Shown here piece by piece: positions 11,101-62,911 of a DNA stretch of 64,000 nt (positions within the stretch are counted from its first letter, which is position 1; each line of letters starts with the position of its first letter). The notes below the pieces were generated by a model that saw only the letters and a list, made by a program, of their open reading frames with translations, did not search any database and was not told the origin of the DNA. The stretch comes from a virus (taxonomy: Duplodnaviria; Caudoviricetes), in the IMG/VR virus record IMGVR_UViG_3300047160_009226, positions 136,690 through 200,689 of that record, one strand, 5' to 3'. The translations under genes were made by a program, and so were the position numbers.

Positions 11101-11607
11101 TTAACTTTGAAAAAGAGACTTCAAATCTGGAATAATACCCAATAAAGTTCGTGTGTGTTGAGGTATCATGACTTCGTGTGAATCAAAAGCAATCTTAAGT
11201 CGATCAGATGACCTCATACCACTGAGATTCATTTCCTTGATAACCTTATCAAGCCCATTTGGAATCGGAGTATCATTCCCATGGTTGAGATAAAAGTTTG
11301 GAGTGTCAAACTCCTGAGAAACACGACCCCTTGGAACTGAATACGGTATCTTTTTGAGAGTCATAATCTGCTCTGAAGAGAGAGACCATTCTTCGCTAAG
11401 CTTAGGAACAATATAACGACGCCAGAACCAATCATGAACCTTATCCTCGGGATAAAGTTCTTCAGGAAAGACATCAAGATCCCAACCGTTGGAAGTAGGA
11501 ACCCAATAATAAGGGCCAGTCATTGGCCGTGCCGACTCCCTTAATGCAGCAAGTCGTTGAGCCAATCGATGAGTACGAGCTACACGGATTAAAGTAGACC
11601 TGTTCAT
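11101..11607 (-). CDS. Hypothetical protein with Arg-rich N-terminal leader
   Basis: ORF track; SD GGGAG; leader MNRSTLIRVARTHRLAQRLAA. Confidence 0.7.
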   Translation of the reverse strand: MNRSTLIRVARTHRLAQRLAALRESARPMTGPYYWVPTSNGWDLDVFPEELYPEDKVHDWFWRRYIVPKLSEEWSLSSEQIMTLKKIPYSVPRGRVSQEFDTPNFYLNHGNDTPIPNGLDKVIKEMNLSGMRSSDRLKIAFDSHEVMIPQHTRTLLGIIPDLKSLFQS

Positions 11608-11709
11608 TTCATCTATCTCCCTTTATTACCCATAACTGTCGTAGCCCTTGATACAATCCTTTCTCATGGAATCTCGGAGATCATATTCAGTACTCGCCAT
11701 AATCAACGA

Positions 11710-12243
11710 TTATTCGACAATCATTGATGCCATACGACTATTGTACAGTTCAAGTCCTTTCTTAACCTCGTCTACGGAGAACCTCTTGAGTTCTCCCCCT
11801 GACCCTTCCACTATAATCGGATATGGACTCACCATCGGACCCTCCTTATGCAACCTTTCCCCGACAATCTGGTACTTCGAACCATTACGCATAATCGTGC
11901 GACCCAAATCCGATGGCGATAGACCGTACTTAGTTGCAATCTCAATGAAATTGTTCTGAATAACGGAGTTCCCTGTCGGTTTAATCACATTCGATTGCGT
12001 CACATCTCCTGACGCATGCACTTGAGTATAAAAACCATCGGTGCTCAAGGTCTGAACCACAATCCGTGCCTTTTCAGTAACCGAATGCGTGAGACCTGTA
12101 CTCGCCACAAACAAGTCAAACCTGATCGACGTCTCCCATCGGTCCTCGTCCTCATTCAATCCACACTCTATCTCCGTAATCGTCCAACGATTTCCCGTGA
12201 CACTCAAGAATATGTCACCCACAACAATCGACTTCACAATCAC
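11710..12243 (-). CDS. Hypothetical protein, paralogue of 12320..12883
   Basis: GTG start after GGGGGG SD; shares VGD.F.S...RWETS and KYGL.P.DLGR.I...Y.IVG with neighbour. Confidence 0.7.
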   Translation of the reverse strand: MIVKSIVVGDIFLSVTGNRWTITEIECGLNEDEDRWETSIRFDLFVASTGLTHSVTEKARIVVQTLSTDGFYTQVHASGDVTQSNVIKPTGNSVIQNNFIEIATKYGLSPSDLGRTIMRNGSKYQIVGERLHKEGPMVSPYPIIVEGSGGELKRFSVDEVKKGLELYNSRMASMIVE

Positions 12244-12266
12244 GCCATTCCCCCCAAGAAAAAATG

Positions 12267-12313
12267 ATTCACGCCGACCATAGAACTATACCACGTCGGC
12301 GTGAATTTTTCCC
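12267..12313 (-). promoter_or_regulatory. Phage promoter motif (GGGAAA-N17-TATAGT) embedded in a 12-bp inverted repeat
   Basis: TATAGT at 12290..12285, -35-position hexamer starts 12313; ATTCACGCCGAC (12267-12278) / GTCGGCGTGAAT (12295-12306). Confidence 0.65.
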
Positions 12314-12319
12314 CTGGAT

Positions 12320-12883
12320 TTACACCAAACCAGCCTTCGCTTTCTCCGCAGTGATCTTATAGACACCACCACGCCTACCCTGAATCAGAATCGGCATCTT
12401 CCAGTTACGCGGTTTAGCACCGACGATCGTATAGTTCTTGGTACGATTCTTGCCAAGACTGATTTTGCGGCCCAGATCCGTCGGAGCCAAGCCGTACTTA
12501 GCTGCGTGTTGACGGAAGTCGGCTTCCCATTGCCTACGCTTCTGATCAACCGATGGTGTAGAAGGAAGCGGCGCTCCAGCCAGAGGTCCGGTCGTCACAA
12601 CCGAAGAAGGCGTTGTTGTTATACCATCTGAGGAAGTCGCTGCCTTCCTCACGCGTACAAAACCGCCTTCTTTCAGTCTCTGTACGAAGTCACGGCCCTT
12701 ACTCGAGAGCTGAAGGTTATTTCCAGACCCGTAACTCGAATTCCATGCCACAGACGTCTCCCAACGATTGTCTACCATGCTGAATTCGAACCAGATCTTG
12801 ACTACCTCCAGCGTGGTTGCAGAATCAGCACTCACAAATCGATCGCCCACCTCAACCGAAAGAACTGCAAGGATGTCAGCCAT
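12320..12883 (-). CDS. Hypothetical protein, paralogue of 11710..12243
   Basis: ORF track; C-terminal KYGLAPTDLGRKISLG...YTIVGAKPRNWKMPIL domain. Confidence 0.75.
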   Translation of the reverse strand: MADILAVLSVEVGDRFVSADSATTLEVVKIWFEFSMVDNRWETSVAWNSSYGSGNNLQLSSKGRDFVQRLKEGGFVRVRKAATSSDGITTTPSSVVTTGPLAGAPLPSTPSVDQKRRQWEADFRQHAAKYGLAPTDLGRKISLGKNRTKNYTIVGAKPRNWKMPILIQGRRGGVYKITAEKAKAGLV

Positions 12884-12938
12884 TGATCGTCACCTCCATG
12901 TTACTATACTCGCCCATCCGTGGTTTTTCGCATAAATT

Positions 12939-15311
12939 CTAAAGATCGCATCCTGGACCCGTACAAGCCACTTGAGCGGAGAGTGTTGTCTCGTCTTCTT
13001 CCTCGTAGAGTAAAATTCGTGACCAGTCAATCTCCGTCGGCATGACTTTCGCACGCTGAGTATATTCCTGCTCAGTAATCGTTTGATAAGGGGCCAATGG
13101 ATAAACTGCGTTATCAAATGGATAGAACGAAATTCCACCTACAATATCCCAGTTCTCATAGACCCAGTTGCCTGCCTCGATCCACTCATGATCCTTGACA
13201 CTAACCGTTATACTTGGATTGTGCTCTGTAAAATTGACTTTCCAAGTCTTCCAGTCCTCTAATTGTTCAACGGCTGTCATATCGCCAAGAATAATGGTAT
13301 TATCAGGGGCTCTACACGGAAATTCAAACACACACATTCCTGTCTTATCATAATCGAACTGCCATGGAATCTTAGCGTCTTTTAATACCTTAGCAATAGG
13401 ATTGGTTTCCTCAAACCGAAGACGTCTGATGTAGAACCTTCCGTGATGCGGTTTAAATCTGGCCGGCTTATCAAAGAATACGCTCGAATCTCCGGACGGT
13501 TTTCCACAAGTAAGAGCCGCTCCAGGCTTAATTCCAATTCTCTGTGCCCAATAAACGTTAGTTTCCTGAACTTTCTTCAAAAGTCTCCGAAGGATCTCTT
13601 CTCGTCCCGATACTCCTGGCTTCAAAAGTTTACAATCCATATGCCCAAGAATATCTACCCCGAGTAAAGCCTCATCTTCACAATTAAATTTCCATTCAGA
13701 ACTAAGATATCTAAAATTAGTCATGCTTGCCTGAATAGTGCCCCAAATCGTCGCAATCTCAACCTTCTTCTCAATTTCCTCATAAGTATCATCAACTTCA
13801 ACAATCGCGATACTAAGGTTACAAAATTCTTTATGTCTAAGAATAATTTCACCACATGGATTTGTTCCTAGTACATGTTCACGTGCTCTCCTAACTGGCA
13901 TCTGATAATTTAACCCACCACGATTAAAAATCCCACGCTCTCCTGATCCGGATTTCGCCAATGCCATCCATTCGTCCATAAAGTCCACAGAAGTCGGCTT
14001 CTCTTCATATGCCGTTGAGTTATTAGTTTGATTCCTCCAAGGATGGGTGTTAAAAAACTCTCCCTTCTTCGCATCACGCATCAATAGATCATCTTTATCA
14101 GATAAAGAAAGACCTGATGCCCGTCTCACTCCACCCATCTGACCGATCCGATGCAACATGCATGTCATATCCAAAAGATCAATACTTCGTAAGCGCTTCT
14201 TCTGTCTCCTAAAAACCAAGTCACGGTCAAAATTCAATAAGTCACGCAATGGGAGTGGGCCACTCGCCCGTCCTCCTTTAGTTCTCAAAATAGAACCTGC
14301 TGGCCTGATCTGTGACAAATCAAAATTTACATCAGCTCCATCCATCCAATGGTGAAGGCCAAATTTCAGTGCATCACACCAAGCCTCGGTATCGTCTTCG
14401 ACCGTATAATCAACAGGATCGCAATCTCTCTTGGCATGAATTCTCGGCCACTTGTCAACGGCATATTCTTCTTCAACAGAGAATCCAAAACCTACACCTT
14501 GCATTAAAAGATAAAGATCTTCCGTCATCAATTCAGGACTGTCCATTAAACCAAATGCGCAATTATAAATTCCAGACTGACATCGTTCCAATGCCGGTCC
14601 TGCCATTTGAATTCCACGCATGCTGCCCGTTGCCTTGTGATGCAACAAGTAGTCATGCATAATTGCCCATGTCTCTTCTGAAACAGATCCAGGTGCAATC
14701 TTAGTGATATGACTACGATAATAATCTATTACTCGTTTGCAGGATTCAGGCCAGATCTCTCGTCTCTTGGGTGTAAAGTCACGACGAAACCGAGAGAACT
14801 TATCAAACGCCTGAACTTCCTGAAGAAGCCTATTCTTCCCGGTAAATGTATCACATCCCTTCTTAAAAAAGTCTCTCATCTCAGGTGAGATACCTTTAGA
14901 TTCTTCTCTAATACGTCTTCGCTCATCTCTATAGAGAATGTAATGCTTGGCTGCTTCAAATTGCCCAAGTGCCATTAACTGGGCTTCAACAATATCCTGA
15001 ATCGCTTCTATTCCAATTTCTGCCAGGTGGCCGTTCTCACCAAACTGAAGCGCTTTCAATCTCAGAATTGTATCCACTTGATCAGTAACAATCTCAGGAG
15101 TCATTCCTCCAATTCTTTCTGCCACACTTTCAAAACACATTCCCACGGCTCGAAGAATCTTATTTCTATCATAAGGTACAATATGCCCCTCTCGCTTCAC
15201 TACTCTCATCAGATTAGGATCAGCCAAAGTCAATAGAGCAGCGTCTGATTCACTGTGATTCTTGTTGTTTCCGTTAGTGAGCTTGTTCGTAAGAGCAGAA
15301 ACCAGCGCCAT
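12939..15311 (-). CDS. nrdJ: Class II (B12-dependent) ribonucleotide reductase with N-terminal ATP cone
   Basis: ATP cone VVKREGHIVPYDRNKI...AAKHYILYR; active site TNPCGEI...CNL; C-terminal CTGPGC; start refined to 15311 (SD AGGAG). Confidence 0.92.
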   Translation of the reverse strand: MALVSALTNKLTNGNNKNHSESDAALLTLADPNLMRVVKREGHIVPYDRNKILRAVGMCFESVAERIGGMTPEIVTDQVDTILRLKALQFGENGHLAEIGIEAIQDIVEAQLMALGQFEAAKHYILYRDERRRIREESKGISPEMRDFFKKGCDTFTGKNRLLQEVQAFDKFSRFRRDFTPKRREIWPESCKRVIDYYRSHITKIAPGSVSEETWAIMHDYLLHHKATGSMRGIQMAGPALERCQSGIYNCAFGLMDSPELMTEDLYLLMQGVGFGFSVEEEYAVDKWPRIHAKRDCDPVDYTVEDDTEAWCDALKFGLHHWMDGADVNFDLSQIRPAGSILRTKGGRASGPLPLRDLLNFDRDLVFRRQKKRLRSIDLLDMTCMLHRIGQMGGVRRASGLSLSDKDDLLMRDAKKGEFFNTHPWRNQTNNSTAYEEKPTSVDFMDEWMALAKSGSGERGIFNRGGLNYQMPVRRAREHVLGTNPCGEIILRHKEFCNLSIAIVEVDDTYEEIEKKVEIATIWGTIQASMTNFRYLSSEWKFNCEDEALLGVDILGHMDCKLLKPGVSGREEILRRLLKKVQETNVYWAQRIGIKPGAALTCGKPSGDSSVFFDKPARFKPHHGRFYIRRLRFEETNPIAKVLKDAKIPWQFDYDKTGMCVFEFPCRAPDNTIILGDMTAVEQLEDWKTWKVNFTEHNPSITVSVKDHEWIEAGNWVYENWDIVGGISFYPFDNAVYPLAPYQTITEQEYTQRAKVMPTEIDWSRILLYEEEDETTLSAQVACTGPGCDL

Positions 15312-15315
15312 GAGA

Positions 15316-15879: not shown

Positions 15880-15901
15880 AATATTCCTCCCTTTTTTAAA
15901 A

Positions 15902-17419
15902 TCACCAGTAACTACTAATTGAGAGTGCTTCTATCAAAGATGTTGGATATCCTCCTGGAATCAAAATTGATTTTCCTACAATCGGAGGAGCGATTTGTGG
16001 AGTCAAGGACTCTGGCAAACTTCCCATCCTCCTATATTCATCAAAGTGATCTGAAGGACATTGAATCGTAAAATCTACATGAGGATTTCCAGCACAGAGA
16101 GAAACAGTAGCTGCCGCTGGATATCGATAGGTTAGAGCCGCTGTAATAAAGAAATCGGTTCCCAAAAAAGATGTCATCTTGGGTCTGCCCAGCAATACCT
16201 TATTAATCCCTCGTTCAAGAGCCAATACCGGTCTAGGATGCTTGACTATAAGATACGTATCATTTTCTTCACTAATTTTAGTAGGAACAGGTCTGTATGT
16301 TGATGTAAGTTGATCTGGATCATCTTGCTGATTTCCGACCATCAACCAGCCTTCTGTCTGCATGAGAATCCGTGAACAACGATCCAGTCCCATTAATCGT
16401 TCTAAAGCAAGAACATAAGTATCTAACGTCGATCGCTCACTCGGTCGAAGATAGAGTCCTTGTTTGACATTATAAAGTATACTTGTAAGAGTTTGTGTCG
16501 TTTTACTAAAAGGATACGTTAAATACGGAAAATTTCCAATAAACGAAGCAGGTGGCTCTGTAATCACCGGAGGTGGCAACACAAATAGTGGAGGCCCTGG
16601 AGGACCTGGAGGTGGACTTGGCGGGACATGAGGATCTTGAATCGGCGGAGGAGGAAATGGATCGTAGTTTGCTGGAAATCTAAAAAGATGGGCATCCGTA
16701 AATGGTGCAACCCAAAATCTAGTAACGTCAATCGGCCCCAATCTCTCTGAGATCTTAGTCATTGGAGGGATGACAAGATCTAACAAATCTGAATCAACAG
16801 GACTTTCAGGTGCTTTCCCATCAAGATACCAGTTTGGAACATTCCTAACAGCTGTATATCTAGGAAATGGTTGTGGTCCTTGATATGAAGGGTCCGCCCA
16901 ATACTTATAATCAATCAAAGAAGGTAGCGGAGGTTTCACCCCTTCGAACAGGGTGGACTTACTCTGCGAAGGTGGAGAAGGAGACGGAGAAGTGGAATAA
17001 TTAAACAAAGGCGGGGGTGACCATGCGTTTATCCAATAGTACAATACAAACTTCTTCTCAGTCTCAAAATACTGCAACACAGGATCAACGGCTGACTCTA
17101 TCAATGTTGCTGAAAAAGGACCTGATGTAGCACTATCAGAATCTGGCATAAGTGCAACAACTGGAATTAACTTTCCAGTCGGAGCACCATTAAAGGTGGT
17201 CGTAAGAAACAATGCCTTGATTCCAGCTCCCCAGCCAATCAACCCTAACAAATTTCCATCTGGATTATCTCTGGTGACTCTGACATACGCCTCTGGTGTA
17301 GGTGTACCTGCACTATACAAAGTAAATGCTGGCTGAAACTCTTCGAAGTTTTCTGCGATGACAGTCATCGCCTCCCCTGTCTCTGTGACCACAGATGAAG
17401 ATAATCGCATCACAGCCAT
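15902..17419 (-). CDS. Pro-rich putative virion protein, paralogue family member A
   Basis: N-terminal module shared with 17665..19182 and 19511..22501 (SVV..GE.LTVI.E...W.NAW.P). Confidence 0.7.
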   Translation of the reverse strand: MAVMRLSSSVVTETGEAMTVIAENFEEFQPAFTLYSAGTPTPEAYVRVTRDNPDGNLLGLIGWGAGIKALFLTTTFNGAPTGKLIPVVALMPDSDSATSGPFSATLIESAVDPVLQYFETEKKFVLYYWINAWSPPPLFNYSTSPSPSPPSQSKSTLFEGVKPPLPSLIDYKYWADPSYQGPQPFPRYTAVRNVPNWYLDGKAPESPVDSDLLDLVIPPMTKISERLGPIDVTRFWVAPFTDAHLFRFPANYDPFPPPPIQDPHVPPSPPPGPPGPPLFVLPPPVITEPPASFIGNFPYLTYPFSKTTQTLTSILYNVKQGLYLRPSERSTLDTYVLALERLMGLDRCSRILMQTEGWLMVGNQQDDPDQLTSTYRPVPTKISEENDTYLIVKHPRPVLALERGINKVLLGRPKMTSFLGTDFFITAALTYRYPAAATVSLCAGNPHVDFTIQCPSDHFDEYRRMGSLPESLTPQIAPPIVGKSILIPGGYPTSLIEALSISSYW

Positions 17420-17664
17420 TATAATTGCCTCATGTCAACTGGTATGAACCTCTCCGTGACTCCTAATACCACGGCCCTCTGAGAAAAAATGCCCAAAAAA
17501 ATAAGATCCATACCAATAAAAATAGGAATAGAGTTTCTCTATCCCTAGTACACGACATACCAACAGTCTATGGGCTACACAAACCGAAGTTTTAGACGGA
17601 TTAGCGAGGAGGAAAATAAGACAGTGCTTTTTCTAACCAATCTAGATAAAATCATTTTATATTA

Positions 17665-19182
17665 TCAATAAGAAATAAAATCCAAATGAAATTGATATAC
17701 ATCGTAGAACTCAGCTGCAACATCACAAGGATCTGACATGACCCAATCCACGGCTGCTTCTTGAAATAAGTCCGAAGTCGCACCATCTGTCAAAAATCCA
17801 TCATCGAGTATAGCCGTCCCGATATCGGGATAATCGTTCCAAGGAAACCACACACGATCCGCATTAATAAGAGTCCGATAGTTCGTCGTAACAGGAAAGA
17901 CACCAACAACTTGTGGAAAGTTCAATACTACCATTGACACTGTCGTTTCTTCTTCCTGCGTTGGCCACCACGGACCTCGAAATGTCCAATTAGTGCGGGG
18001 TAAAGAAAATGCACAGTCCAAACTAAATTTCAATTCACCATGAGAATTAAAATAAGAAGCGAGAAATTGTTTAGATATCGACTTGAAGATCGCCCCGTCC
18101 AATATCCATCCCTTCGCATACATGAGCACTCGCGTCGAATTCACCAGATTAGCGTGATCAAAATGAGCTTTCAATGCGTTGACAATGATCAAGTGATCTT
18201 CCCAATTCGTTGTCTTTAAAAACTCAACACCCACTCCAGGCAGACAAGCAGGTTCCATCTCACGGGTATATGGATTAGATTCTCCTACAGGAATAAACTC
18301 AGGGACATCTCGTATCGAAGCTTGCCTGATGTGTTCACCCGCTGCTATAATTCCACCCCGCCGTTCCCAGTCATCCCGTGCATCCGAAGGATCCGCCCCA
18401 AAGTCCGCAGGCGGTGGCCCGGGATAATCCATCAGGCCCCTCTTGATTGCGTCCTGAAGCCAACGGGCCCCCGAGGTCATAGGCATCCGTGGATCGCCAT
18501 TAGCCTTACTCTCCCCCATAATGATATTAGGTACCCCCTTCACTCCCATGGGGAAATAGTCGAATTGATATCCCTCAGGAATCGGTGCAATCCAGAATGG
18601 TTTAGTTTGATCAAAAGCTGAAGGATTTGTCTTTGGTACTAAACTTCTCAACCACGTTGGAGATTGTACATCTGGAACACTATGTGCTGCATAAAATGTA
18701 TTGGGAGGAGCAGGAAGTTTTCTCGTTAACAACTCAGATGGTGGACCTGGTGGAAGAGACAGTAAAACACTTGGAGTAACTGAAGGAGGAGGTGATAATG
18801 ATTCATTTGATATATAGTCCGGAGTCCATGCATTCCACCACCACAAACAGTGAACTGTTTTAGTAGTTTCATCAAATCCTACAGAAAGACCAATGGCATT
18901 ATGAAGTGGAAAAACTTTAATAGGCCGTGCTCCATAATTTGCATCTTTATACATACAAAGAATCGGCACAGGAAACGACTGAACCTCCTTCTTGGAAAGC
19001 AAAGAATAACTGATCCGACTTCCTATAGGATAGATCTCCTCCTGTATAAGAATACTTCCAGATGATTTCGGTAAGTTCACTTTAAACGCAGGAATACTAT
19101 ACTGAGCTGCCTCTGTAATGACAGTCAGTGATTCTCCAGAAGGAAGTGTAACTACTGATGGTCTCCGTCCAATAACCGGCAT
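17665..19182 (-). CDS. Pro-rich putative virion protein, paralogue family member B
   Basis: As above; WWWNAWTP and RVLMYAKGWI motifs. Confidence 0.7.
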   Translation of the reverse strand: MPVIGRRPSVVTLPSGESLTVITEAAQYSIPAFKVNLPKSSGSILIQEEIYPIGSRISYSLLSKKEVQSFPVPILCMYKDANYGARPIKVFPLHNAIGLSVGFDETTKTVHCLWWWNAWTPDYISNESLSPPPSVTPSVLLSLPPGPPSELLTRKLPAPPNTFYAAHSVPDVQSPTWLRSLVPKTNPSAFDQTKPFWIAPIPEGYQFDYFPMGVKGVPNIIMGESKANGDPRMPMTSGARWLQDAIKRGLMDYPGPPPADFGADPSDARDDWERRGGIIAAGEHIRQASIRDVPEFIPVGESNPYTREMEPACLPGVGVEFLKTTNWEDHLIIVNALKAHFDHANLVNSTRVLMYAKGWILDGAIFKSISKQFLASYFNSHGELKFSLDCAFSLPRTNWTFRGPWWPTQEEETTVSMVVLNFPQVVGVFPVTTNYRTLINADRVWFPWNDYPDIGTAILDDGFLTDGATSDLFQEAAVDWVMSDPCDVAAEFYDVYQFHLDFISY

Positions 19183-19510: not shown

Positions 19511-22501
19511 CTAGCAAGGCCATAACGGCCTGATTCTTTTTCCAATTGGAATCATTTCATCAATACTTGTCCCCGAAACAGGAGTCGTTGGAATACCAGG
19601 TAATGCTGGTGGTCCAGGATTTACCGGAACCGGATCAAATCGATCCACGATATTCCTAAAGTATGCAACTGGATTTGATCGAAGATAGTCCAAAAAGTAG
19701 AAAGACGGAGCTGATTCCTCAATTCCAAGTCCGATCACCTTAACCGGATTCGTTGTGCCTGGAGTGATAGAAGTAATAATCCCTGGATTAACATTCATCC
19801 CTCCAAGATCTGGTCGTAGCGGATAAGGTACGTTCCCTTGTAAATAGATGTTCTTTCCCTGGATAAATGTCTTGACAACCACTGGAGGATTTAAGATCAA
19901 ATACGGTCTCATAGGAACCTCTGCCTGATACGCTCCTTCAGGAATCCCCTTTTCAGCAGAAGTCGCAATTGGATCAGGCATCCCAGCCACTTGTGTAGTT
20001 CCGATCGACAAGGCCAACCCCCTGAGATCACAAGTCTGATTTACTCCTTTTGGCACTACTTCTGTCACACCAACTTGAAATAACCAGACTCCCATAAAAC
20101 TACTAAAATTATTAGTTGTTAAACCATTAATTGTCATAACTCCAGTGTTGATCTGCATCTCCAACATAATTTGATTTTTATAAGTCGGAACCATTTGATT
20201 TGGTGGATCTATTGGATTCGGAAAAAGGAATAAATAGTTTCCTGTTTGACCTCCAGTCGCTTCAACTGTTCCCCTCCATTTAGCAATTGATTGATCAGTA
20301 TTTTGAATAGATGGCATACTTGTTCGCGTAATAGTTGCCTTAAACGTCATCGGAACCTTCCGGCTCTCTGAACAAGGTGTAGGCGGCGTACCATCAGGTG
20401 TATTATAGTAAATATCCTCCATCACAAAAAACAGAACAGTCGCTTCTCCATGCAATCCAGAACTATCCTGAACATGAATTCGAAAAACATAAGTTCCTAT
20501 TTGTGTAGGTGTTCCATAAAATAACCCATTGATATCAAATAACATTCCAGGTGGCATTCCCCCACTTCGTGATGCTGGAGGAAAATTAACATTCGGAATT
20601 AAATTTCCATATATATCAAAAGGATAGGGAGGAGTTGGCTGACCCTCCAAAATCGGTGTACGTGCTGGATCATTAGCACTTGATCTTGTTCTTCTCAGAC
20701 ACCATTGATAAGGACCAGTTCCTCCGGATACCCTAAACTGATGTCCTACTTCCCCAGGTGTCGAAGCCGCAAATCCCGGTAGAGCCACCCCAAAAGGAAA
20801 CAAAAGATTGGAATTTACAATCGTAACCGTATTAGGTCCTTGATATTCGCTATTCACGACTGCCGGAGTCAAATCAGATAGCCCGACTGTCAAGCCGCCA
20901 AACTGTTCCATAACTACATCATCTACAGGTGGAGTATCTTCAATCAATACTAAATTTTGTACTTGTCCTTTAGCCATCATCAGAACTCGAGTTCCCATTC
21001 TACTAGCTTGAACTTCTCTTTGATGATAAAGGTGTTGTGTATAAGTATTCATCGAGTCTTGAATAGCAGTGAGGTTGAGTAATCCTCCTTCCTTTTGTAC
21101 TTGATCAGATGAAATCAAACCAGGATCATGTGGTAATGCCTTATAAGCATCCGTAAACTGAAATGGATCAGTGTCTTTGCCAGGTGATGCTCCATCTACA
21201 GCCAAAAGACTATTCTTGTTCGTCCTGTTGTAAATTCCAGCCCAACCACCACCTGGATCTAACGGAGGATCTCCAACGGAATAATCGAAATCGACATTTT
21301 CTGTGGTTCGCTGAAATGCATGTGGTTCGTTGGCATCCAGCGGAAGTGTAAACGTAATAGGAGTCTGCTTATATGTATTATAAAAAGCGTCTATGTTTGA
21401 TTCCTGCGAGATGGAACATTGCAACTTCCCATCTACAGACACCACGTAAATTGATGTAAACCCATCACCAGTAGCACGACTTACTGGAATATACATCTTA
21501 TCAATGTATACATTAAAGTTGAGTGTTACATTTTGCTCTGTATGAGAGTGCTGGAAATCTATCGTTGCAGAATAAATGATCAAAGAATTAGGTGCGTCTT
21601 TGTTAGAAGGAACTTGTAAAGTATAAGGGTCATTTTGATCTGCACCGAAAGTCCATACAAAAGGCTGCACTTCAGACCCAATTGCCGCTGTACCTTGCAT
21701 CCTCACGACAGCCTTAGGATTTCCATCCCGAAAAGGTCCGTTCGTTGGATCCTCTCCAGCGTCTGGTTGATCTGAACTAGATAAAGGAAGATTCAAGCTT
21801 TCCCTGATGCTGCCAGGTACTTCTCTTCTCGCCAAGACAATCTGCACAAATAAACTCTTCCAAGTCATTCCCTGTTCTGGCTGATTCCCATTCGGATCTA
21901 CTCCCAAGTTAACCGTCAAAGTCCCACTACGTCCAAATATCCCCGTTATCGGGAAATGATTCGGTCCAATCGGTGGTGGAAAAGTCATCACCTGATTCAC
22001 AGGTTTATTAATCGCCTGTAATGTTGTCCCATCTGGATCTTGATAAGTTTTCCAATCACCTCTCGTTAAGGCTGCAGCGGGAACCAAATGAGTCGGAACA
22101 CAAGAGATCTGAATAGGTACACTATTCAATGGAGAAAAAAGATTCCACCAGAATAAAACGGTGACCTCTTTTGTTGTAGGAAAATATGTTAGATCTAACC
22201 CCTGAGCATCTCTAAGATAATGAGCTGTTTTCGGATTAGGGCCATCTCTTGCGTTGTTTTCCAGTATAAAAATCGGAGTAACCGTCGGATTAGTCTGAGC
22301 TTTATTGCCAACCGTTTGAAAGAGCCACCCAAGCCGCTCATTACGTTGAGGAGCCTCACGACATACAATCAATCTCCCACGGCTTCTAGGATCAAGTAAC
22401 CATGATTGTGCTCTGACTCTCTGCGCGCATTCAGATAGAACTGCTAATACTTCCCCACTCTCCAAAACAACCATCGCTGGGTTTCTTGCGAAAAGTGGCA
22501 T
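19511..22501 (-). CDS. Large putative virion protein with He_PIG-like Ig domain, paralogue family member C
   Basis: FRVSGGTGPYQW...GMPPGMLFDINGLFYGTPTQIGTYVFRIHVQDSSG; N-terminal module shared with A and B. Confidence 0.75.
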   Translation of the reverse strand: MPLFARNPAMVVLESGEVLAVLSECAQRVRAQSWLLDPRSRGRLIVCREAPQRNERLGWLFQTVGNKAQTNPTVTPIFILENNARDGPNPKTAHYLRDAQGLDLTYFPTTKEVTVLFWWNLFSPLNSVPIQISCVPTHLVPAAALTRGDWKTYQDPDGTTLQAINKPVNQVMTFPPPIGPNHFPITGIFGRSGTLTVNLGVDPNGNQPEQGMTWKSLFVQIVLARREVPGSIRESLNLPLSSSDQPDAGEDPTNGPFRDGNPKAVVRMQGTAAIGSEVQPFVWTFGADQNDPYTLQVPSNKDAPNSLIIYSATIDFQHSHTEQNVTLNFNVYIDKMYIPVSRATGDGFTSIYVVSVDGKLQCSISQESNIDAFYNTYKQTPITFTLPLDANEPHAFQRTTENVDFDYSVGDPPLDPGGGWAGIYNRTNKNSLLAVDGASPGKDTDPFQFTDAYKALPHDPGLISSDQVQKEGGLLNLTAIQDSMNTYTQHLYHQREVQASRMGTRVLMMAKGQVQNLVLIEDTPPVDDVVMEQFGGLTVGLSDLTPAVVNSEYQGPNTVTIVNSNLLFPFGVALPGFAASTPGEVGHQFRVSGGTGPYQWCLRRTRSSANDPARTPILEGQPTPPYPFDIYGNLIPNVNFPPASRSGGMPPGMLFDINGLFYGTPTQIGTYVFRIHVQDSSGLHGEATVLFFVMEDIYYNTPDGTPPTPCSESRKVPMTFKATITRTSMPSIQNTDQSIAKWRGTVEATGGQTGNYLFLFPNPIDPPNQMVPTYKNQIMLEMQINTGVMTINGLTTNNFSSFMGVWLFQVGVTEVVPKGVNQTCDLRGLALSIGTTQVAGMPDPIATSAEKGIPEGAYQAEVPMRPYLILNPPVVVKTFIQGKNIYLQGNVPYPLRPDLGGMNVNPGIITSITPGTTNPVKVIGLGIEESAPSFYFLDYLRSNPVAYFRNIVDRFDPVPVNPGPPALPGIPTTPVSGTSIDEMIPIGKRIRPLWPC

Positions 22502-22772: not shown

Positions 22773-23141
22773 CTATTCAATATCAGAAATTCCCATCTCT
22801 TTCATAAACTTTCTTCCATTCTCACTAAGCTTCAATTTTTTCTTGTCGTCTTCTTCAATAGAAACTATCTTTCTTTCGATACCTTCAAGAATTACATGGA
22901 ATGCTTTCCAAACCACTTTAATTGGACCTAATGAATCAGATGACCAGTCATTGACCCACAGCGTGACTCGATAAAACCTTTGCAACGCTGTAGCATATAG
23001 AGGAATCACTTCTATCTTTGAAAACTTCTGCTTACAAGGATACTTTTTAACAATCTCATCTAGTATCTTTCGTTTACAAGCCTCCGAACACCATGCCATG
23101 TCAACCTGATTCTCAGGTAGGTCAAGTTTCGTGGTACTCAT
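22773..23141 (-). CDS. Hypothetical protein
   Basis: ORF track; SD GGGGG. Confidence 0.65.
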   Translation of the reverse strand: MSTTKLDLPENQVDMAWCSEACKRKILDEIVKKYPCKQKFSKIEVIPLYATALQRFYRVTLWVNDWSSDSLGPIKVVWKAFHVILEGIERKIVSIEEDDKKKLKLSENGRKFMKEMGISDIE

Positions 23142-23193
23142 GGCTCACCCCCTATGAGTATCTAGAGAAAAAACCCTTGTTTGAACACCTCCC

Positions 23194-39869: not shown

Positions 39870-40105
39870 CCGCAAACGTCTGGTCCACCACACTTACTTT
39901 TTCCACAAATAATGAGGTTTAAACCAGTGGGATGGACTAACTGAATATTGACGAAATTTCTTGACGACGCAGTTATCAATGCTCCCATACTGCCGTCGTA
40001 AAATCCACTCATAGGAATGACTTGCCCCTTAAGAAGTAAGTCAGTCACACGATTATAAATATCCTCTCGTCTCTTTCTCCCTGTTCCGTGAATGGTACTA
40101 GGCAT
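39866..40105 (-). CDS. Hypothetical protein, 79 aa
   Basis: ATG 40105 with SD AGGAG, overlapping the upstream stop; stop overlaps next start. Confidence 0.55.
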   Translation of the reverse strand: MPSTIHGTGRKRREDIYNRVTDLLLKGQVIPMSGFYDGSMGALITASSRNFVNIQLVHPTGLNLIICGKSKCGGPDVCG

Positions 40106-41132
40106 GAACAAGCTTCTCCTTAAAGTATTTCCGATACTCCTGCCAATATTTAGGAACAGACCGAATAGCTGGCTCACCTTTAGGCCAAGGTCTGTCTATA
40201 GCATACACGGAGTAAAGAAAGGCAGCCCGTGGATCAGTAGCTATGTAATCTTCTGCCTGAGGTAAGGCCCCTCCACCAATCCCAATATAACGTGATAATC
40301 GCTCAGTGGAAACTAATCTATTGTCAATAAGGTGCTGAAAAAACACAGGATACTTATGGGGATGTATACGCAAATGATAAATGCAGTAATCAAATATCTT
40401 GTCTTCTTTTTCAGATGGATAAGCTTTATCGGCCCAAAACTGAAGGATCCCTGATTTTAATAAAAGCATCAAAGTCTCGTCACTCAATTTAACCATTTCG
40501 TTACTAACATCTTTAATTTCACTGCCCCTGTAGTCCGCCAGGAAAAGTCTCTCTTTTCCTTTAAATGCAAGAAACAAACGACCTCTCTGAAGATAGCTCT
40601 TGGCCGTGTTTTCAGATCTAGTGCACCATGCAGTCCCTTGCGAATAACTGCATACTGCTTCCACAGCTGTTTCTGGATCAACTCCTTCACCACCAATCTG
40701 TAGTATTTTATAAGGCCCATTATTATAAATGACCTTGACTGTCTCTTTGGCTTTCTTAGTTTCTTGTGCCTTGGATTTCAAATCCTCGTCTTTATGTGTA
40801 ATCCAACTATCATAAAGTTCATCCAAAGTTAACTTATTAATATCAGCAGGTAATCCTACATGCTCAAGCAATGCCGGTGACTTAGATACTTTTTGAAAAA
40901 ATGCTAATGCTTGTCTAACACGTCCAAACCATTCATCAGCGGAGTTGCCGCCAGGATCAACAACATTTCTGATGATCCATCCCAGATACTTCCCCCCCGT
41001 CGGATCGGCTTTTGCAAGTCTCCGAAGCTCTTCTTCTGATATCTTATGGTTTTTAGCGTAGAACTGAATACGTTCTTCTAGTCCTGCTATTCGCAAAAGA
41101 CGATGTGCCAATCTAAGTGTTCTGGAAATCAT
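40098..41132 (-). CDS. Large-phage hypothetical protein (DPT..KY..W / GT.WCT type) with Arg-rich leader
   Basis: ADPTGGKYLGWII, SQGTAWCT, C-terminal AFLYSVYAIDRPWPKGEPAI; leader MISRTLRLAHRLLRIAG. Confidence 0.7.
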   Translation of the reverse strand: MISRTLRLAHRLLRIAGLEERIQFYAKNHKISEEELRRLAKADPTGGKYLGWIIRNVVDPGGNSADEWFGRVRQALAFFQKVSKSPALLEHVGLPADINKLTLDELYDSWITHKDEDLKSKAQETKKAKETVKVIYNNGPYKILQIGGEGVDPETAVEAVCSYSQGTAWCTRSENTAKSYLQRGRLFLAFKGKERLFLADYRGSEIKDVSNEMVKLSDETLMLLLKSGILQFWADKAYPSEKEDKIFDYCIYHLRIHPHKYPVFFQHLIDNRLVSTERLSRYIGIGGGALPQAEDYIATDPRAAFLYSVYAIDRPWPKGEPAIRSVPKYWQEYRKYFKEKLVHA

Positions 41133-49651: not shown

Positions 49652-49680
49652 ACTATACCCCACTCGTCCCGAAATTTCTC
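49652..49680 (-). promoter_or_regulatory. Phage promoter motif GAGAAA-N17-TATAGT
   Basis: GAGAAATTTCGGGACGAGTGGGGTATAGT. Confidence 0.8.
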
Positions 49681-49919
49681 TATTTTTCCCGTTCCAAAGT
49701 ATCGGCCAACTCACCGTGAATACGATTCACGCCACGGTAATCAAAAATGGCCGGTACACCACCCGGCGCTATGTGTACCGCTACCCCATCACGGGTAACT
49801 AATGCTCTCGGAGAATCGACCTCCAACAACCGCCCGCTCACCAACTCAATAGCAAAAGGCTGAAACGGTTGTCGCTGCATAAAAGCATCAACGGCATTCT
49901 CAAAATTCTCTCGCTCCAC
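49680..49919 (-). CDS. Small protein of a Planctomycete-type family (RxPFxPFxIxLxSG)
   Basis: QRQPFQPFAIELVSGRLLEV; start refined to GTG 49919 after SD GAGGGG. Confidence 0.75.
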   Translation of the reverse strand: MERENFENAVDAFMQRQPFQPFAIELVSGRLLEVDSPRALVTRDGVAVHIAPGGVPAIFDYRGVNRIHGELADTLEREK

Positions 49920-49983
49920 AACAATTCCCCTCCCCCTCAACTCAAGGATTTCTCCATTTTAGAAGTAACGAACCCTCTATGGT

Positions 49984-50012
49984 ACTATACTCTACTCATC
50001 CCGAAATTTCTC
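49984..50012 (-). promoter_or_regulatory. Phage promoter motif GAGAAA-N17-TATAGT
   Basis: GAGAAATTTCGGGATGAGTAGAGTATAGT. Confidence 0.8.
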
Positions 50013-50246
50013 CTACTCTGGCAAAGATTCATGTTTGCATTCGACGGCATCAATAGAACTCAACCTCATCAAGTTGATCCCTTTGCCAGGAATAGCCATG
50101 ATCAGTAAATTGGGATAAGAATTTGTAACGAATATCTCAGATCCTTCTGTAATCTGATAAACTTTATTTGCTTTAGTTCTAATGGAATACGGGCGAGTCA
50201 AGTCTCCCTCAAGAATCAGGGTCTTAAAATCAGTAATAGTAGACAC
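50013..50246 (-). CDS. Small protein, divergent member of the same family as 49680..49919
   Basis: RPYSIRTKANKVYQI...INLMRLSSIDAVE. Confidence 0.65.
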   Translation of the reverse strand: MSTITDFKTLILEGDLTRPYSIRTKANKVYQITEGSEIFVTNSYPNLLIMAIPGKGINLMRLSSIDAVECKHESLPE

Positions 50247-50289
50247 TCAAAAATTCTCCCCGAAAACAGAATGAGACACTCCCTCTAAT

Positions 50290-50318
50290 ACTATACTCGA
50301 CTCAAGCCGGAATTTCTC
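50290..50318 (-). promoter_or_regulatory. Phage promoter motif GAGAAA-N17-TATAGT
   Basis: GAGAAATTCCGGCTTGAGTCGAGTATAGT, immediately after the terminator. Confidence 0.8.
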
Positions 50319-56311: not shown

Positions 56312-58682
56312 TCACGTATAAGACATGGCCATGGGAGGTGCGGTGCCATCACCGAGTCCTCCGAAACCAAAAGTACGCGGCACGACTTCGTTCTGCCCTG
56401 CAATAGCGAACTCTTCACTCGTCAGAAGGACATGTGCGAATGTGATCGTCGGATTCGTACCGCCACCAGTATTACCCGCAAGGAACAGAGTGACATTCGT
56501 CGTTGACGCGGTGAATGGTGCAACAGGTGGCCACTGATATGCATACGGGTCCGGAATCACACCATCCCGGAATAGACGCATCGTGCCATCGACACTCATA
56601 ACACCCTGAAAGACGGCTGCAGGGTTTGGATCCCCTGTGCAATTCGATACCGTAATCCCATTGGCAATAAATGAACGTGTGCTTGATTCGTACACGTCAT
56701 AAACATCAACGGGATAGTACCAGGGAGTAACTCTTTCAACCTTATCAAAGTACCAGTCCTGTGCCTGATACATTCTCAAAAGTTGGAGTTCAGAGCCAGA
56801 GCACTTCAAAGTTTCTGCCCGCTGAATAATGCGAGGCAAAGTCGTCTCAGCCAAAACGTTCGAATGTCCATTCCTAACGTTCTTAATTCGAGCCGTCGTC
56901 GCATCTTCTTCTCGATCCCTGGCTTTATACACATACTTACCAGGGAACAGAGCCCGAATCAGAACCTGAGCATAGGGAACATACAGGGATTTATCAATCT
57001 CCTGTGTCCGGTTCGCAAAGTAAGATTCCAAGGCGTCCTGCTTGGAATCCAATGCAAAACCAACTTTCTCTAGGAACCACTTCCTGCTGCGAATCCCAAC
57101 CACCCGAACGTCATACCTTCTTGCAACATACTTTCGTCCGTTGATCTCAGACTTAAAAGACGTCGGAGTAATGGTGGAAATGACTCCCAGCAAATGCAAA
57201 GCTCGACGAACATCCCTGGCCAAAAAACGATACTTGGTCGAAAAATGAATAACACCTCCATTTCTCACACCACCATCCGTAGTGAATAAGCCTCGTAGCA
57301 GTGCTCCCAATTGCTTCTCTCCCAAAGACCACGTCTGTTCAGGGAGTCCCTTCTCTCTCCACCGGCCCTTCGGTTGATAAGAAGGAATCTCAGTGAATTT
57401 TGATCGATCCGCCTTTCGTGTACCCAAGTAAAATTGAGTCTGTTCGCAATCCATCTCCCCATTTTCCAACTCAAACGGAGGACGAATCGACTCAGAATAT
57501 TCAAGACCCTCTTCCTGGAAGAAATCCTCCAGTAGAGATACCAAGCTCTTCTCAGACTCAGTCACTTGCCATACCAATCTCCCGTTATCATCCTGAGATC
57601 CATCTCCATAAAGATGACCGATGGCATACCACCTCTTGATCGACCCACCACGATCCTCAGGGATCAACCCTCCATGACCACGACGACACAACAACCAATC
57701 TCCCTCCCCCAACTCATCGGCCCGTTTCCAGCTCAGCGTCCCGTCACCACGCATCACTCGCATCTTATGATCTGGAGTGACTCTGATATCGTTATGCAGC
57801 TCGGTACGAATCCTCAGGACGTCCCTCTTGCCCTGATAAACCAATCCCCTGTGCCTCTGAATTCCATGCTCAGAAAGCACCCGACCAGGCTCATCCAACA
57901 AGGAATCAATCCGATGATAACCTATAGGTGTCATGATTCTTGAGTCTGCGGCTAAACAACCACGCACGACTTGTGTGTTGTTGTTCATAGTCCAGTCAGC
58001 TCCCATCATAAACATGCCCGTTGGATTCGTCGGAGAGTAATTCGGCGGAGCCCCTCCCGGCCAACCACCCCCAGCAGGGAAATTAGGAGGCCACAGATTC
58101 ACCTGTGCCTGAGCCAACCAACCAGGAAACGGATTTCGGTTGATAGGAGCCGGATTCAAAGGGAGTGTCGGTACGTTCGATGTTGTCCGGACTGCCCGAT
58201 ATGTACTTGCAGAGTAAGTCTCTGATCTCTGCAAACCGATCACATTGCAATTCAACTTGATTGATGCCGCTGGATCGACCGTAAACCCAGCTGAATTCAT
58301 CCAGACCCCACCACGGGTATTCCCAGTAGGATTGGGATCAGCCTGAAAAGACTGGATCGCCAATCCATTCGGCGACACGATCATGCTCTGAGGATACACC
58401 CTCCAGTTGACTAACCAGTCCGAAATCAAATTCCAGACCGTAGGAAGACCTCCCTGAAGTTCGAAGGTCAGTGCCCCTGAGAATTGCATCTGACTATCTG
58501 CGTAGTTTGTGTGTTGAGCACCAGTCCACCACCCGGCTCCCCATACTGCTTCGGAGAGAATCGGGTTCACCTCGCGGTTCAATCCACCCGTGTTTGTCAA
58601 CAGGAGAATTGCAGGATATTGACCGCCTGGAGATGCGGTAGGTCCACCTAACTTCGCAAAACCCGAAGTACCCTATTGACAT
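56312..58682 (-). CDS. Tail tube-like protein, paralogue 3, intein-containing; true start at 58682 needs a +1 shift at codon 8
   Basis: Exteins align with the other tube paralogues (GYFGFAKL vs GYSGYAIV; ADWTMNNN...PNPAAVFQG vs NWSLTFNN...PNPALISAG); SD GGGGGG before 58682. Confidence 0.75.
56642..57958 (-). mobile_element. Intein with LAGLIDADG homing endonuclease (439 aa)
   Basis: Block A G|CLAADSRIMT, block B IRVTPDH, LAGLIDADG-like AIGHLYGDG and LRGLFTTDG, block F/G VYDV...FIANGITVSN|C. Confidence 0.95.
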
Positions 58683-58743
58683 AGGATACCCCCCTTTCTT
58701 TGAAAAAAGACACCCTGATTTCCGTGACGCCTCAATCTACCCA

Positions 58744-59229: not shown

Positions 59230-59233
59230 GCCA

Positions 59234-59530
59234 TTATTTCTCCCACCAGTTCTTGGGTTTTCGTAGATTTTCGACTGGCTCAGTACGTCCGACACGTCCT
59301 CTGCGTTTCTCAACAGACCGCTCCACCAATTCCTTCACCCATGGGATGGCTAAGAAAATCTCCAAAGCCTCCTTGATTTCCCCAGTCAACTTATTCTCAG
59401 ACATCCAGTCGAGATATCCAACTCCTGCCGGATCACTAGTGGCAATCTTCTCTAATGTCTGGCCCTGATACTTACCAAAGGGCATCGAAAATTGACAGGC
59501 TTGCTCAGGATTCATATTTTTACCCTCCAT
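59234..59530 (-). CDS. DUF3820/ExoX C-terminal-like small protein
   Basis: MPFGKYQGQTL..I......GYLDWM motif. Confidence 0.75.
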   Translation of the reverse strand: MEGKNMNPEQACQFSMPFGKYQGQTLEKIATSDPAGVGYLDWMSENKLTGEIKEALEIFLAIPWVKELVERSVEKRRGRVGRTEPVENLRKPKNWWEK

Positions 59531-60077: not shown

Positions 60078-60210
60078 TGTCTTTCCCCTAAGCAATAAAC
60101 TTCTATTGCGATAATAGCTCAATCTCAGATCTTGAAATTTTCTCTTTCTTCTCCAACTTAAAGAGGGTCATCTCATTAAGCCACCATAAGCATGGTAACT
60201 TAATCATCGT

Positions 60211-61071: not shown

Positions 61072-61177
61072 AATTTCTGATGTAACTTGTATCTAGCCCC
61101 GTAAAGGAGTGACGATTTCTCCTCTCCTAAGAAATCGCCACCCACTTCCAGACAGAAGTACTTCTGCCTAGACCAAT

Positions 61178-61390
61178 CTAGTCCTCGTCGTCCTCTTCCT
61201 CGATCTCATCATCGTCCTCGTCATCGTCGCCATCGTCGCTGATAATCCTCGACTGATCATTCAGGTGCTCCTGAATCTCGTCAAAAAGTTCCTCTTTGGT
61301 ATCGTCATCGAGTTCTGGATCATTTGCGATGGCATCAATTGCTTTCATCACATCCGCTTTCAATAGATCCGACTTGACTGACATGGGCAC
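61178..61390 (-). CDS. Small, highly acidic protein
   Basis: C-terminus DDGDDDEDDDEIEEEDDED; SD AGGAGG; own promoter. Confidence 0.7.
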   Translation of the reverse strand: MPMSVKSDLLKADVMKAIDAIANDPELDDDTKEELFDEIQEHLNDQSRIISDDGDDDEDDDEIEEEDDED

Positions 61391-61435
61391 CTCCTAAGAA
61401 TTCAATCGAAACCTGATGATCCGCTCCCGTAACCT

Positions 61436-61464
61436 ACTATACCCCCAACAAGCGAGAATTTCTC
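61436..61464 (-). promoter_or_regulatory. Phage promoter motif GAGAAA-N17-TATAGT
   Basis: GAGAAATTCTCG...GGGGTATAGT; upstream element is the palindrome CGAGAA-A-TTCTCG. Confidence 0.75.
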
Positions 61465-61548
61465 GGTGGAACCCAGATTGATGATATTCTACTTGGCTAC
61501 AATAATTCTAATTGCCAGTCAAGTCGTTCTCGACACGGTAAGCATGGA

Positions 61549-62223
61549 TTAACGCCCTCCGATATATTGCCTGAAATATTGTTCCACCTTCTTATCTGGA
61601 AGTCCCCGAACCAAATTGAGTGCTTCTTGCTTGGTCTTCTCTGGATTCTGACTCAACCATCTAGCAATCAATTCTCCCCTCATCTTGTTCAATCGAGCCG
61701 GTTCATCAGACTCCGGTCCATAGGTGCGTGGCCACTGACCATACCTCTCCAGAAATCTGAGTAACTGTCTTCCCTTCACAAATTTATCAGCCGATAATTC
61801 TTCTGAGAAGTAATCGCCTGGCTCTACATGGGAAGGATACTGACCATAATAGTTCTCATCTTCTTCCGGTCTTTGCTCGACTCGATTTTCTGTATCATAG
61901 ATGATCACCAGTAATCCATGATTCAAAATATCTCTATCCGTGACATCATGAAAGTCTTTTCCTAGCTTAACTCCAATATGGTGAACCATCGCAGTAACGG
62001 CTCTTCCCAATCCTCCCTTATCTGCTGCAAACACTATTTCAGATAGATCTTCCCCTGCTTCCAAATATTCTCCATAAGCCTGCTCTACAAAATGACCAAC
62101 TCCACCTACCAAACCGATCTGTCTAATACTCGCTTCGTTATCTACGGTAGTGCCGTGGTACAGAGTCCTGGCGATTTTTCGTGACCCACAAAGTAATCGA
62201 GCAATTCGGGTGATTCTATCCAC
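61549..62223 (-). CDS. ADP-ribosyltransferase-fold-like protein with Arg-rich leader
   Basis: RTLYHGTTVDNEASIRQIGL (YHGT..I...GL start of ART/Tpt1-like folds); leader MDRITRIARLL. Confidence 0.55.
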   Translation of the reverse strand: MDRITRIARLLCGSRKIARTLYHGTTVDNEASIRQIGLVGGVGHFVEQAYGEYLEAGEDLSEIVFAADKGGLGRAVTAMVHHIGVKLGKDFHDVTDRDILNHGLLVIIYDTENRVEQRPEEDENYYGQYPSHVEPGDYFSEELSADKFVKGRQLLRFLERYGQWPRTYGPESDEPARLNKMRGELIARWLSQNPEKTKQEALNLVRGLPDKKVEQYFRQYIGGR

Positions 62224-62233
62224 GAATCCATCC

Positions 62234-62911
62234 TCAAATCAAATTTTGAGACACCATATTGTCATAGATTTCCTTGGCTCGTTTCATCACAGCCTGAGTA
62301 GCAAACTTTCGCTCCTCTTCTGTCGGAGTGTAGGACTCGACACCTTCAAGATACCGATCCACATAATTTTCTGCATGAAGTTCCCCTAACTTGCGATGAA
62401 AATAATTCCAGATCCGGAAATTCGGTTCGTCTTTCAAATGGCGAAGCATCTGCCGCAATCTAGGAGTGAACTCGCTGAGATGAGCCTGTTGATCCTTCAT
62501 TTCGTACTTCTTATCGATCAGCAAATCATGCAGATGTTCCACCTCATGAATGAAGGAGCCACCCAGAGACCGACCACTCCCTTTATGCTTGAAGCCCCAC
62601 TTGCCAACTTCTATGTAACCATGCCTAACATTGTGTACAAGTCTAGCCGCACATCCCCGAATCAACGGATTCCAGAACACCGAAATCAACCCCATACCAT
62701 TCGCAGCCCGAGGAAAGAAATCAGAGACATGCCCAAGAAACAATATGTTCGTCTTGTAATCCGCATAAGGGTCCTTCACTAGATTACGCAAGACTTCCTG
62801 AAGTTTCTTCTGGGCATACACCTCATCGTCAACGGTCGCACCGCTCCCGATCTCATTCCAGTTCGCCAGAAGCCTCCGTGCCAGTCCCATTGTTCGTGAT
62901 AAAGTCTGCAT
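62234..62911 (-). CDS. Putative zincin (HExxH) metalloprotein with Arg-rich leader
   Basis: SFIHEVEHLHD...HLSEF; start refined to ATG 62911 (MQTLSRTMGLARRLLA). Confidence 0.6.
   Translation of the reverse strand: MQTLSRTMGLARRLLANWNEIGSGATVDDEVYAQKKLQEVLRNLVKDPYADYKTNILFLGHVSDFFPRAANGMGLISVFWNPLIRGCAARLVHNVRHGYIEVGKWGFKHKGSGRSLGGSFIHEVEHLHDLLIDKKYEMKDQQAHLSEFTPRLRQMLRHLKDEPNFRIWNYFHRKLGELHAENYVDRYLEGVESYTPTEEERKFATQAVMKRAKEIYDNMVSQNLI

Follow-up and report, generated by a model that had tools for sequence, protein, structure and literature searches.

We propose that a short, arginine-rich N-terminal peptide shared by 11 otherwise unrelated proteins of one phage, four of which (P0001 to P0004) are encoded in the stretch presented here, is a capsid-targeting propeptide. 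The stretch, called the window in the following, is the terminal 64 kb (64,000 nucleotides; G000:C1:136690-200689) of a single 200,689-bp IMG/VR virus record, IMGVR_UViG_3300047160_009226, which is rated 91% complete. The peptide, termed the class-2 leader, would be the head-loading tag of a soil-type jumbo-phage clade that is distant kin of phages Tunturi_5 and G, and a prohead protease would remove it after R-x-A. We put the probability of this reading at roughly 60%. A capsid-targeting, protease-removed tag had been suggested for four N-termini in an earlier note on this DNA, and it appears to be the best-supported explanation on comparative evidence, namely the presence of leaders resembling the T4 capsid-targeting sequence (CTS) at the same junction of homologous cargo proteins in other phages.

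A leader common to eleven unrelated proteins

The four N-termini read as the earlier note gave them, from minus-strand starts at window positions 11607, 41132, 62223 (a GTG codon) and 62911. With a position-specific scoring matrix (PSSM) built from these four only, the top matches outside the seed were five further proteins of the genome, all located at most 10 residues from the start of the open reading frame (ORF). The refined PSSM recovered 11 proteins genome-wide at 26.6-33.6 bits, all at the N-terminus, while the next match in the proteome scored 9.0 bits and no internal site in the whole proteome exceeded 10 bits. All 11 genes are on the minus strand (genome coordinates first, window coordinates where the gene lies in the window):

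2657-4024: g2657, 452 amino acids
13475-13954: GNAT acetyltransferase (Pfam)
20843-21346: member of the S-adenosylmethionine (AdoMet) decarboxylase family (Pfam)
38489-39550: g38489, extremely acidic, proline-rich, low-complexity protein
56793-57179: tagged protein
57169-57531: tagged protein
106706-108841: tagged protein; start probably an internal GTG with AAAGGGA in front
147790-148296: P0001, window 11101..11607, 168 amino acids; leader about residues 1-27 (window 11527-11607)
176787-177821: P0002, window 40098..41132, 344 amino acids; leader residues 1-16 (window 41085-41132), closing R-I-A before the core G-L-E-E-R-I
198238-198912: P0003, window 61549..62223, GTG start, 224 amino acids; leader residues 1-18 (window 62170-62223), closing K-I-A before the invariant core R-T-L-Y-H-G-T
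198923-199636: P0004, window 62234..62911, 225 amino acids from the Met at 62911; leader residues 1-16 (window 62864-62911), closing L-L-A before the core N-W-N-E-I-G-S-G-A-T

The core motif is R-x-x-R-[LI]-A-x-x-L-[LV]. As a consensus of the 11, Met is followed by 1-9 residues, by R-[TSVI]-x-R-[LI]-A-[RQHSC]-x-L-[LVAF] and by another 0-8 residues that usually close in [RK]-x-A or h-x-A right before the folded core. In P0001, whose leader scores 28-29 bits at residue 11, the core is doubled (R-V-A-R, then R-L-A-Q-R-L-A-A), and E-S-A comes next. A degenerate class-2-like N-terminal helix, ..[KR]-V-A-R-[QN]-L-L-[SA]-E-G, with a low PSSM score, was also seen on two orthologous head-module proteins, at genome 30834-31871 and at 815-1855 of the relative L051.

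In 200 shuffles, the refined PSSM gave about 0 matches at 15 bits or more, compared with 11 N-terminal matches in the genome. The expectation of many more hits in the earlier note was borne out by seven further proteins, although the leader was not seen on the scaffold-like protein or on any identifiable capsid protein. The downstream parts are unrelated, as the note had stated: the best E-value among the 11 mature parts was 0.04 in an 11-sequence database. What is found is therefore a short N-terminal peptide common to unrelated proteins of one phage (11, none internal), as in a T4-type CTS.

A common N-terminus of this kind could also arise as a nucleic-acid or translational signal, from a recombination hot spot at gene starts, or by chance among sequences rich in Arg, Leu and Ala. 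In the relative L052, a 521-amino-acid DUF3293 protein carries a leader near-identical to that of the adjacent P0003 orthologue, which suggests copying by recombination. However, the shared residues of leader pairs use the identical codon at only 78 of 318 positions, so that codons at identical residues are essentially unconstrained and selection acts on the peptide rather than on DNA or RNA; moreover, orthologues with as little as 32-33% identity still have the peptide. Chance similarity is opposed by the lack of matches in the shuffles and in other phage lineages, where 879,461 residues of six-frame, stop-to-stop ORFs contained six matches of 14-17 bits, none near an ORF start. Because of the shuffles, the codon comparison and the scan of other lineages, we regard explanations at the level of DNA or chance as largely refuted and hardly credible.

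Leaders of this type may be systematically lost in annotation. In public automated annotation P0001 begins at Met29 and P0004 at Met8, by which the leader is lost wholly or partly (window 11523-11607 and 62890-62911). We favor the long forms because a Shine-Dalgarno-like AAGGGAG precedes the long P0001 start and because P0004 orthologues carry the full leader.

Leader junctions across lineages and the predicted cut site

The class-2 leader is retained by orthologues of g2657 down to 32% identity, by orthologues of P0003 and P0004, and by one of P0002 that is 33% identical. In L051, a tagged P0002 orthologue lies directly upstream and a tagged P0003 orthologue directly downstream of the portal gene. 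Across lineages, the P0002, P0003, P0004 and g2657 families keep the core while the leader differs at one fixed junction. In the P0003 family, all 13 class-2 leaders (17-22 residues; one of 30, apparently mis-started) end in [RK]-x-A before R-T-L-Y-H-G-T, while the other homologues have Glu at the junction in 53 of 63 cases, mostly with L, I or F at P3 and with leaders of typically 8-12 residues. One of these, V-K-T-F-K-Q-F-I-A-E, is identical at 7 of 10 positions, counting its GTG start as Met, to the T4 CTS M-K-T-Y-Q-E-F-I-A-E (PMC8442874). For the P0002 family, Ala precedes A-L-E-D-R-I in 16 of 19 class-2 leaders, and ten leaders of the Glu-ending type (E-type) close with [LIF]-x-E. The P0004 family comprises four class-2 leaders (L-[LR]-A before [NST]-W), three of the E-type (e.g. 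F-L-E before N-W) and one of a further class, class 1. Distant members of the g2657 family start with M-R-Y-x-E-I-x-x-E-A-R-R-N-P or are embedded in proteins of about 1,841-1,898 amino acids.

Peptidase_S77, the family of the T4 prohead protease gp21, is encoded by five of the nine records searched for swapped-leader homologues, namely by all four large IMG/VR records with E-type P0003 homologues and by one record with a g2657-family member. Since the same junction carries T4-CTS-like leaders in phages encoding gp21, the class-2 leader would occupy the position of a T4-type targeting-and-cleavage peptide, with Ala replacing the final Glu. The gp21 motif [LI]-x-E itself is absent from the ends of class-2 leaders, and a terminal [LIF]-x-E is confined to homologues from other lineages. 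Four P0002-family proteins of other lineages (P0222, P0267, P0281 and P0289) carry yet another type, ..A-R before P-T-E-x-K-I, which hints at another lineage-specific tag and cut site.

The notion that the leader ends at Ala agrees with its tendency to close in [RK]-x-A and with the enrichment of this motif in head-module proteins. Of the 11 leaders, 8 have a second [RK]-x-A within 16 residues after the core (11% expected, P 2e-6). In 39 head-module proteins R-x-A-[ASG] occurs 37 times compared with 12.4 expected (three-fold, z 7.9), while the control motifs R-x-S-[ASG] and L-x-A-[ASG] occur about as often as expected; the other 156 proteins show a weak excess (51 versus 37, z 2.7). The sites are densest in acidic scaffold-like and internal-looking proteins (33277-34791, 30834-31871, 34825-35499 and 5126-6511), and the protein at 30834-31871 has five of them. 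The head module also holds four tagged genes, one of which overlaps the start of the protease gene.

The class-2 leader is predicted to form a cationic amphipathic helix. Its net charge is +2 to +4 in all 11 cases, and its helical hydrophobic moment (0.49-0.87) lies above the shuffle mean of about 0.4 in 11 of 11. AlphaFold2 models of P0003 and P0004 (mean predicted local distance difference test, pLDDT, 79) place a separate N-terminal helix at residues 3-13 and 4-17, respectively. In P0003 a low-confidence linker at residues 13-16 follows and the first core strand begins at residue 20; in P0004 pLDDT is below 50 at residues 1-8.

A helix of this shape also binds membranes and nucleic acids, and the leader could, with or without cleavage, serve to dock or localise the proteins somewhere outside the head interior, for instance at the cell membrane, on DNA or on another part of the virion. 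Several tagged genes are located outside the head module, and P0001 belongs to a probably non-late operon, both of which fit such a role. Nevertheless, we consider docking elsewhere unlikely. T4-CTS-like leaders stand at the same junction of homologous cargo in gp21-encoding phages, the motif at the leader end is enriched in head-module proteins, and the cargo consists of enzymes and not of adhesins. A Sec or Tat signal is likewise not apparent. Such signals have a positively charged n-region ahead of an unbroken hydrophobic h-region of some 10 or more residues (in Tat, with S/T-R-R-x-F-L-K), whereas here Arg at every third or fourth position breaks up the hydrophobic positions and no long uncharged hydrophobic run is left.

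Even less probable, in our opinion, is a pro-segment without targeting function, which would hold potentially harmful enzymes in an inactive or unstable state before the phage protease is produced and removes it. The leader of P0003 adjoins the first core strand and could occlude or destabilise the fold, [RK]-x-A is found at the junction, and several cargo proteins resemble modifying enzymes. However, an inhibitor would be expected to be tailored to its fold, and not to be common to 11 unrelated folds and swapped among three leader types. The acidic low-complexity g38489 is tagged as well, and in T4 targeting and cleavage concern one and the same peptide (PMC9026906).

Class 1, the second leader of this genome, has the motif M-[KR]-L-[TS]-x-x-[YF]-[TS]-x-[IV], often continuing into R-[IV]-A. 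It is present on at least nine proteins, mostly small and of the head module (nine N-terminal matches, 0.1 expected), is conserved in the relative L011 (3307-8595), and replaces class 2 on homologous cores in P0197 and L011 7037-8173 (P0002 family) and in P0328 (P0004 family). The two classes thus seem to serve related roles. The class-1 genes lie outside the window (genome coordinates):

2402-2602: class-1 leader
14215-14808: class-1 leader
18210-18446: class-1 leader
18464-19120: class-1 leader
19681-20067: class-1 leader
22860-23213: class-1 leader
26481-27233: class-1 leader
45988-46380: class-1 leader
111583-113577: class-1 leader

Tentatively, and at somewhat less than even odds, we suggest that the clade possesses a head-loading system analogous to that of T4 but made of different parts, in which a prohead protease specific for Ala at P1 and Arg at P3 recognises two interchangeable leader classes (12-residue class 1 and 18-residue helical class 2), both ending in R-x-A. 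Cargo might be sorted by place or amount according to its leader class.

Cargo, genome setting and weight of the evidence

None of the 11 tagged proteins is recognisable as a replication, tail or lysis protein. P0001 and three others are without annotation in Pfam and PHROG, and for P0001 nothing was found in Atlas and no relatives were found in IMG/VR or metagenomes. The tagged g38489 is of a kind found in head cores. The view that the tag routes diverse cargo into the head for injection is consistent with the presence of some proteins of known or predicted injected kind: ADP-ribosyltransferase-like proteins, a GNAT and polyvalent-protein domains.

A weak lead suggests that P0003 is an enzyme of the ADP-ribosyltransferase superfamily. 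Its best fold matches in the PDB are DarT1, Arr, Tpt1/KptA and the A chains of pertussis and cholera toxins (weak; E 0.04-0.5, template-modelling score about 0.3), the family alignment shows no variation at His23, Tyr50 and Glu134, and Atlas features lead to DarT/PARP and Arr; Pfam gave no match. P0004 contains an invariant H-E-V-E-H that is weakly zincin-like, and zinc peptidases and HExxH domains match its fold weakly. The P0002 family is large (905 matches). P0002-like domains are fused in giant proteins (986 and 2,733 amino acids) with Pfam ART-PolyVal, at 2.3e-15 in P0271 and more weakly in P0283; direct hidden Markov model searches of the genome for ART-PolyVal and MPTase-PolyVal returned nothing. 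The tagged g2657 belongs to a widespread 'PKLGINP' family with weak ART-PolyVal and RES-like leads, and g2657-like domains occur inside the above-mentioned proteins of 1,841-1,898 amino acids and are also fused to nucleotidyltransferase-like N-termini. Its membership in this family led us to reject g2657 as a candidate for the major capsid protein. Both the P0002-like and the g2657-like domains are hence found fused with other effector domains in giant proteins, as polyvalent modules are, and polyvalent proteins are predicted to be injected or delivered with the DNA (PMC5512222).

At the end of the record, one further ORF might belong to the cargo:

Window 63425..64000 (minus strand): truncated ORF that runs off the contig end

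This ORF shares 38% identity with the C-terminal portion of the class-2-led DUF3293 protein of L052 and may be a twelfth cargo with its N-terminus beyond the end of the record.

We hypothesize the following course of events. During prohead assembly, the leader helix would bind to some part of the internal core, for which the highly acidic scaffold-like proteins of the head module are possible candidates, and the binding would enclose enzymes such as two ADP-ribosyltransferase-like proteins, a GNAT, an AdoMet-decarboxylase-like protein and an HExxH protein. The intein-bearing prohead protease would then cut after Ala and release the cargo, which would remain in the head and enter the host with the DNA. 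Helix binding to a prohead component, packaging, cleavage, retention in the head and injection are all steps that we infer from sequence comparison.

The genome has a GC content of 44.7%, and about 196 of 215 greedily called ORFs are on the minus strand. PHROG and Pfam searches placed the portal gene at genome 23386-25593 and the large terminase gene at 27230-29359; a head-maturation-protease-like gene with a weak PHROG match, split by a LAGLIDADG intein, is located at 11286-13481. The window itself contains replication genes, namely a split DNA polymerase, a DnaB-like helicase, an SNF2-type helicase and ribonucleotide reductase (PHROG/Pfam). Judged by the portal, the closest phages in culture are Tunturiibacter phage Tunturi_5 (30% identity), whose acidobacterial host comes from tundra soil, and Bacillus phage G (23%). 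No nucleotide-level relative of the genome was found among the deposited phages searched, nor were close relatives found in IMG/VR (queries portal and P0001) or in metagenomes (query P0001), and a scan of metagenomes with the leader profile returned almost exclusively distant lineages. Pfam Peptidase_S77 (gp21 type) had no match at E up to 10 in the 91%-complete record. The protein at 5126-6511 resembles an acidic scaffold.

LAGLIDADG inteins interrupt a structural gene (window 56312-58600), the prohead protease gene (genome 11286-13481) and the portal gene of L051 (6381-9995), and the three are mutually related by BLAST. A small protein at genome 74538-74873 (..IIVVFNDDDHTFEYVVELF) resembles the Clp adaptor ClpS by eye.

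A promoter-like motif, GAGAAAwwT followed after 14-16 bases by GTATAGT, has about 22 intergenic copies on the minus strand, mostly 11-60 bases upstream of small genes of unknown function, in the genome regions 73-100 kb, 148-156 kb and 186-198 kb. The core heptamer GTATAGT has 32 copies on the minus and 5 on the plus strand. In a search for late promoters, GAGAAAwwT-N-GTATAGT was the sole clear motif, and the structural genes are arranged in long operons without a common upstream motif. The copies in the window are:

Window about 12291 (minus strand): promoter-like motif
Window about 12909 (minus strand): promoter-like motif
Window about 19449 (minus strand): promoter-like motif
Window about 49658-50296 (minus strand): promoter-like motif
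Window about 61442 (minus strand): promoter-like motif

Several observations weigh against a capsid-targeting propeptide. The P0001 operon is headed by a promoter-like motif (genome 148980) that otherwise precedes mostly small non-structural genes, which would fit early and not late expression. The class-2 leader was not seen in the first 50 kb of Tunturi_5, the part that was checked. No protein is identifiable as the major capsid protein, and the candidates at 5126-6511 and 16503-18206 are without a match in the PDB, PHROG, Pfam or cultured phages. In three of the 11 leaders no second [RK]-x-A is present and the end is L-L-A-A or L-L-A-N, and it is enrichment statistics and junction alignments only that point to R-x-A as a processing site. 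The E-type leaders are T4-like by sequence only, and the functions suggested for P0003, P0004 and g2657 are weak leads from folds or a language model.

If the leader nevertheless is a capsid-targeting propeptide, its 12-position motif would predict which proteins this uncultured clade delivers to the host with its DNA, and the delivered enzymes (ADP-ribosyltransferase-like, acetyltransferase, AdoMet-decarboxylase-like and metalloprotein) would probably counter host defences. It would also provide a second, chemically distinct tag for loading foreign proteins into phage capsids. The leader swaps (class 2, class 1 and T4-like) would represent a natural experiment showing that tags are modular, lineage-specific and track the type of head protease, and they make the recognition of CTS-type signals testable by comparison. 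If the two-class system is true as well, sequence alone would reveal which proteins an uncultured clade of soil jumbo phages injects, and the types of leader and protease would evolve together across phage lineages.

Comparison with known head-loading and delivery systems

The capsid targeting sequence of T4 was reportedly the subject of work by Mullaney and Black in 1996. The class-2 leader resembles it as a short N-terminal peptide on unrelated, dispensable-looking proteins, placed directly before the folded core, with an end that resembles a head protease site. In T4, the CTS on IPI, IPII and IPIII both targets and is removed, and the propeptide of Alt, a packaged ADP-ribosyltransferase, is cut by the gp21 protease (PMC9026906); the ADP-ribosyltransferase-like cargo described here parallels Alt. 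In addition, homologues of three of the four window cargo proteins carry T4-like leaders in phages that encode gp21. Unlike the T4 CTS of 10 residues with mixed acidic and hydrophobic character, the class-2 leader has 16-22 residues and a strongly cationic amphipathic helix, and its predicted cut site has Ala at P1 and Arg or Lys at P3 where T4 has Glu and Leu or Ile. Class 2 is known from sequence alone. Two leader classes are present in one genome, and Peptidase_S77 was not detected. Most likely, the leader is therefore new relative to the T4 CTS in sequence, length, chemistry and predicted cut site, and belongs to a lineage without a detectable gp21-type protease.

All prohead proteases characterised in T4, phiKZ, 201phi2-1 and SPN3US cut after Glu (PMC5694885). 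In phiKZ, 201phi2-1 and SPN3US, the propeptides of head and ejection proteins are removed by proteases such as gp175 and gp245, which cut at S/A/G-x-E or A-x-E (PMC5694885, PMC10052503). Like these jumbo phages, the phage described here would load many proteins into the head and trim them at a short recurring motif. However, the propeptides of those phages are mostly longer than 100 residues and do not form a portable short tag, and the cut after Glu differs from the R-x-A proposed here.

In bacterial microcompartments and encapsulins, encapsulation and cargo-loading peptides, a short amphipathic helix with a flexible linker, send diverse enzymes into a protein shell, and encapsulin shells have the HK97 fold of phage capsids. 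These peptides are not known to be cut off by proteolysis, their sequences differ and their role lies in cellular metabolism, and the likeness implies no homology.

The class-2 cargo contains the same kinds of effector domains as the polyvalent proteins of Iyer et al. 2017 (PMC5512222). While polyvalent proteins combine such domains in one polypeptide, they are encoded here as separate small proteins, each with its own leader.

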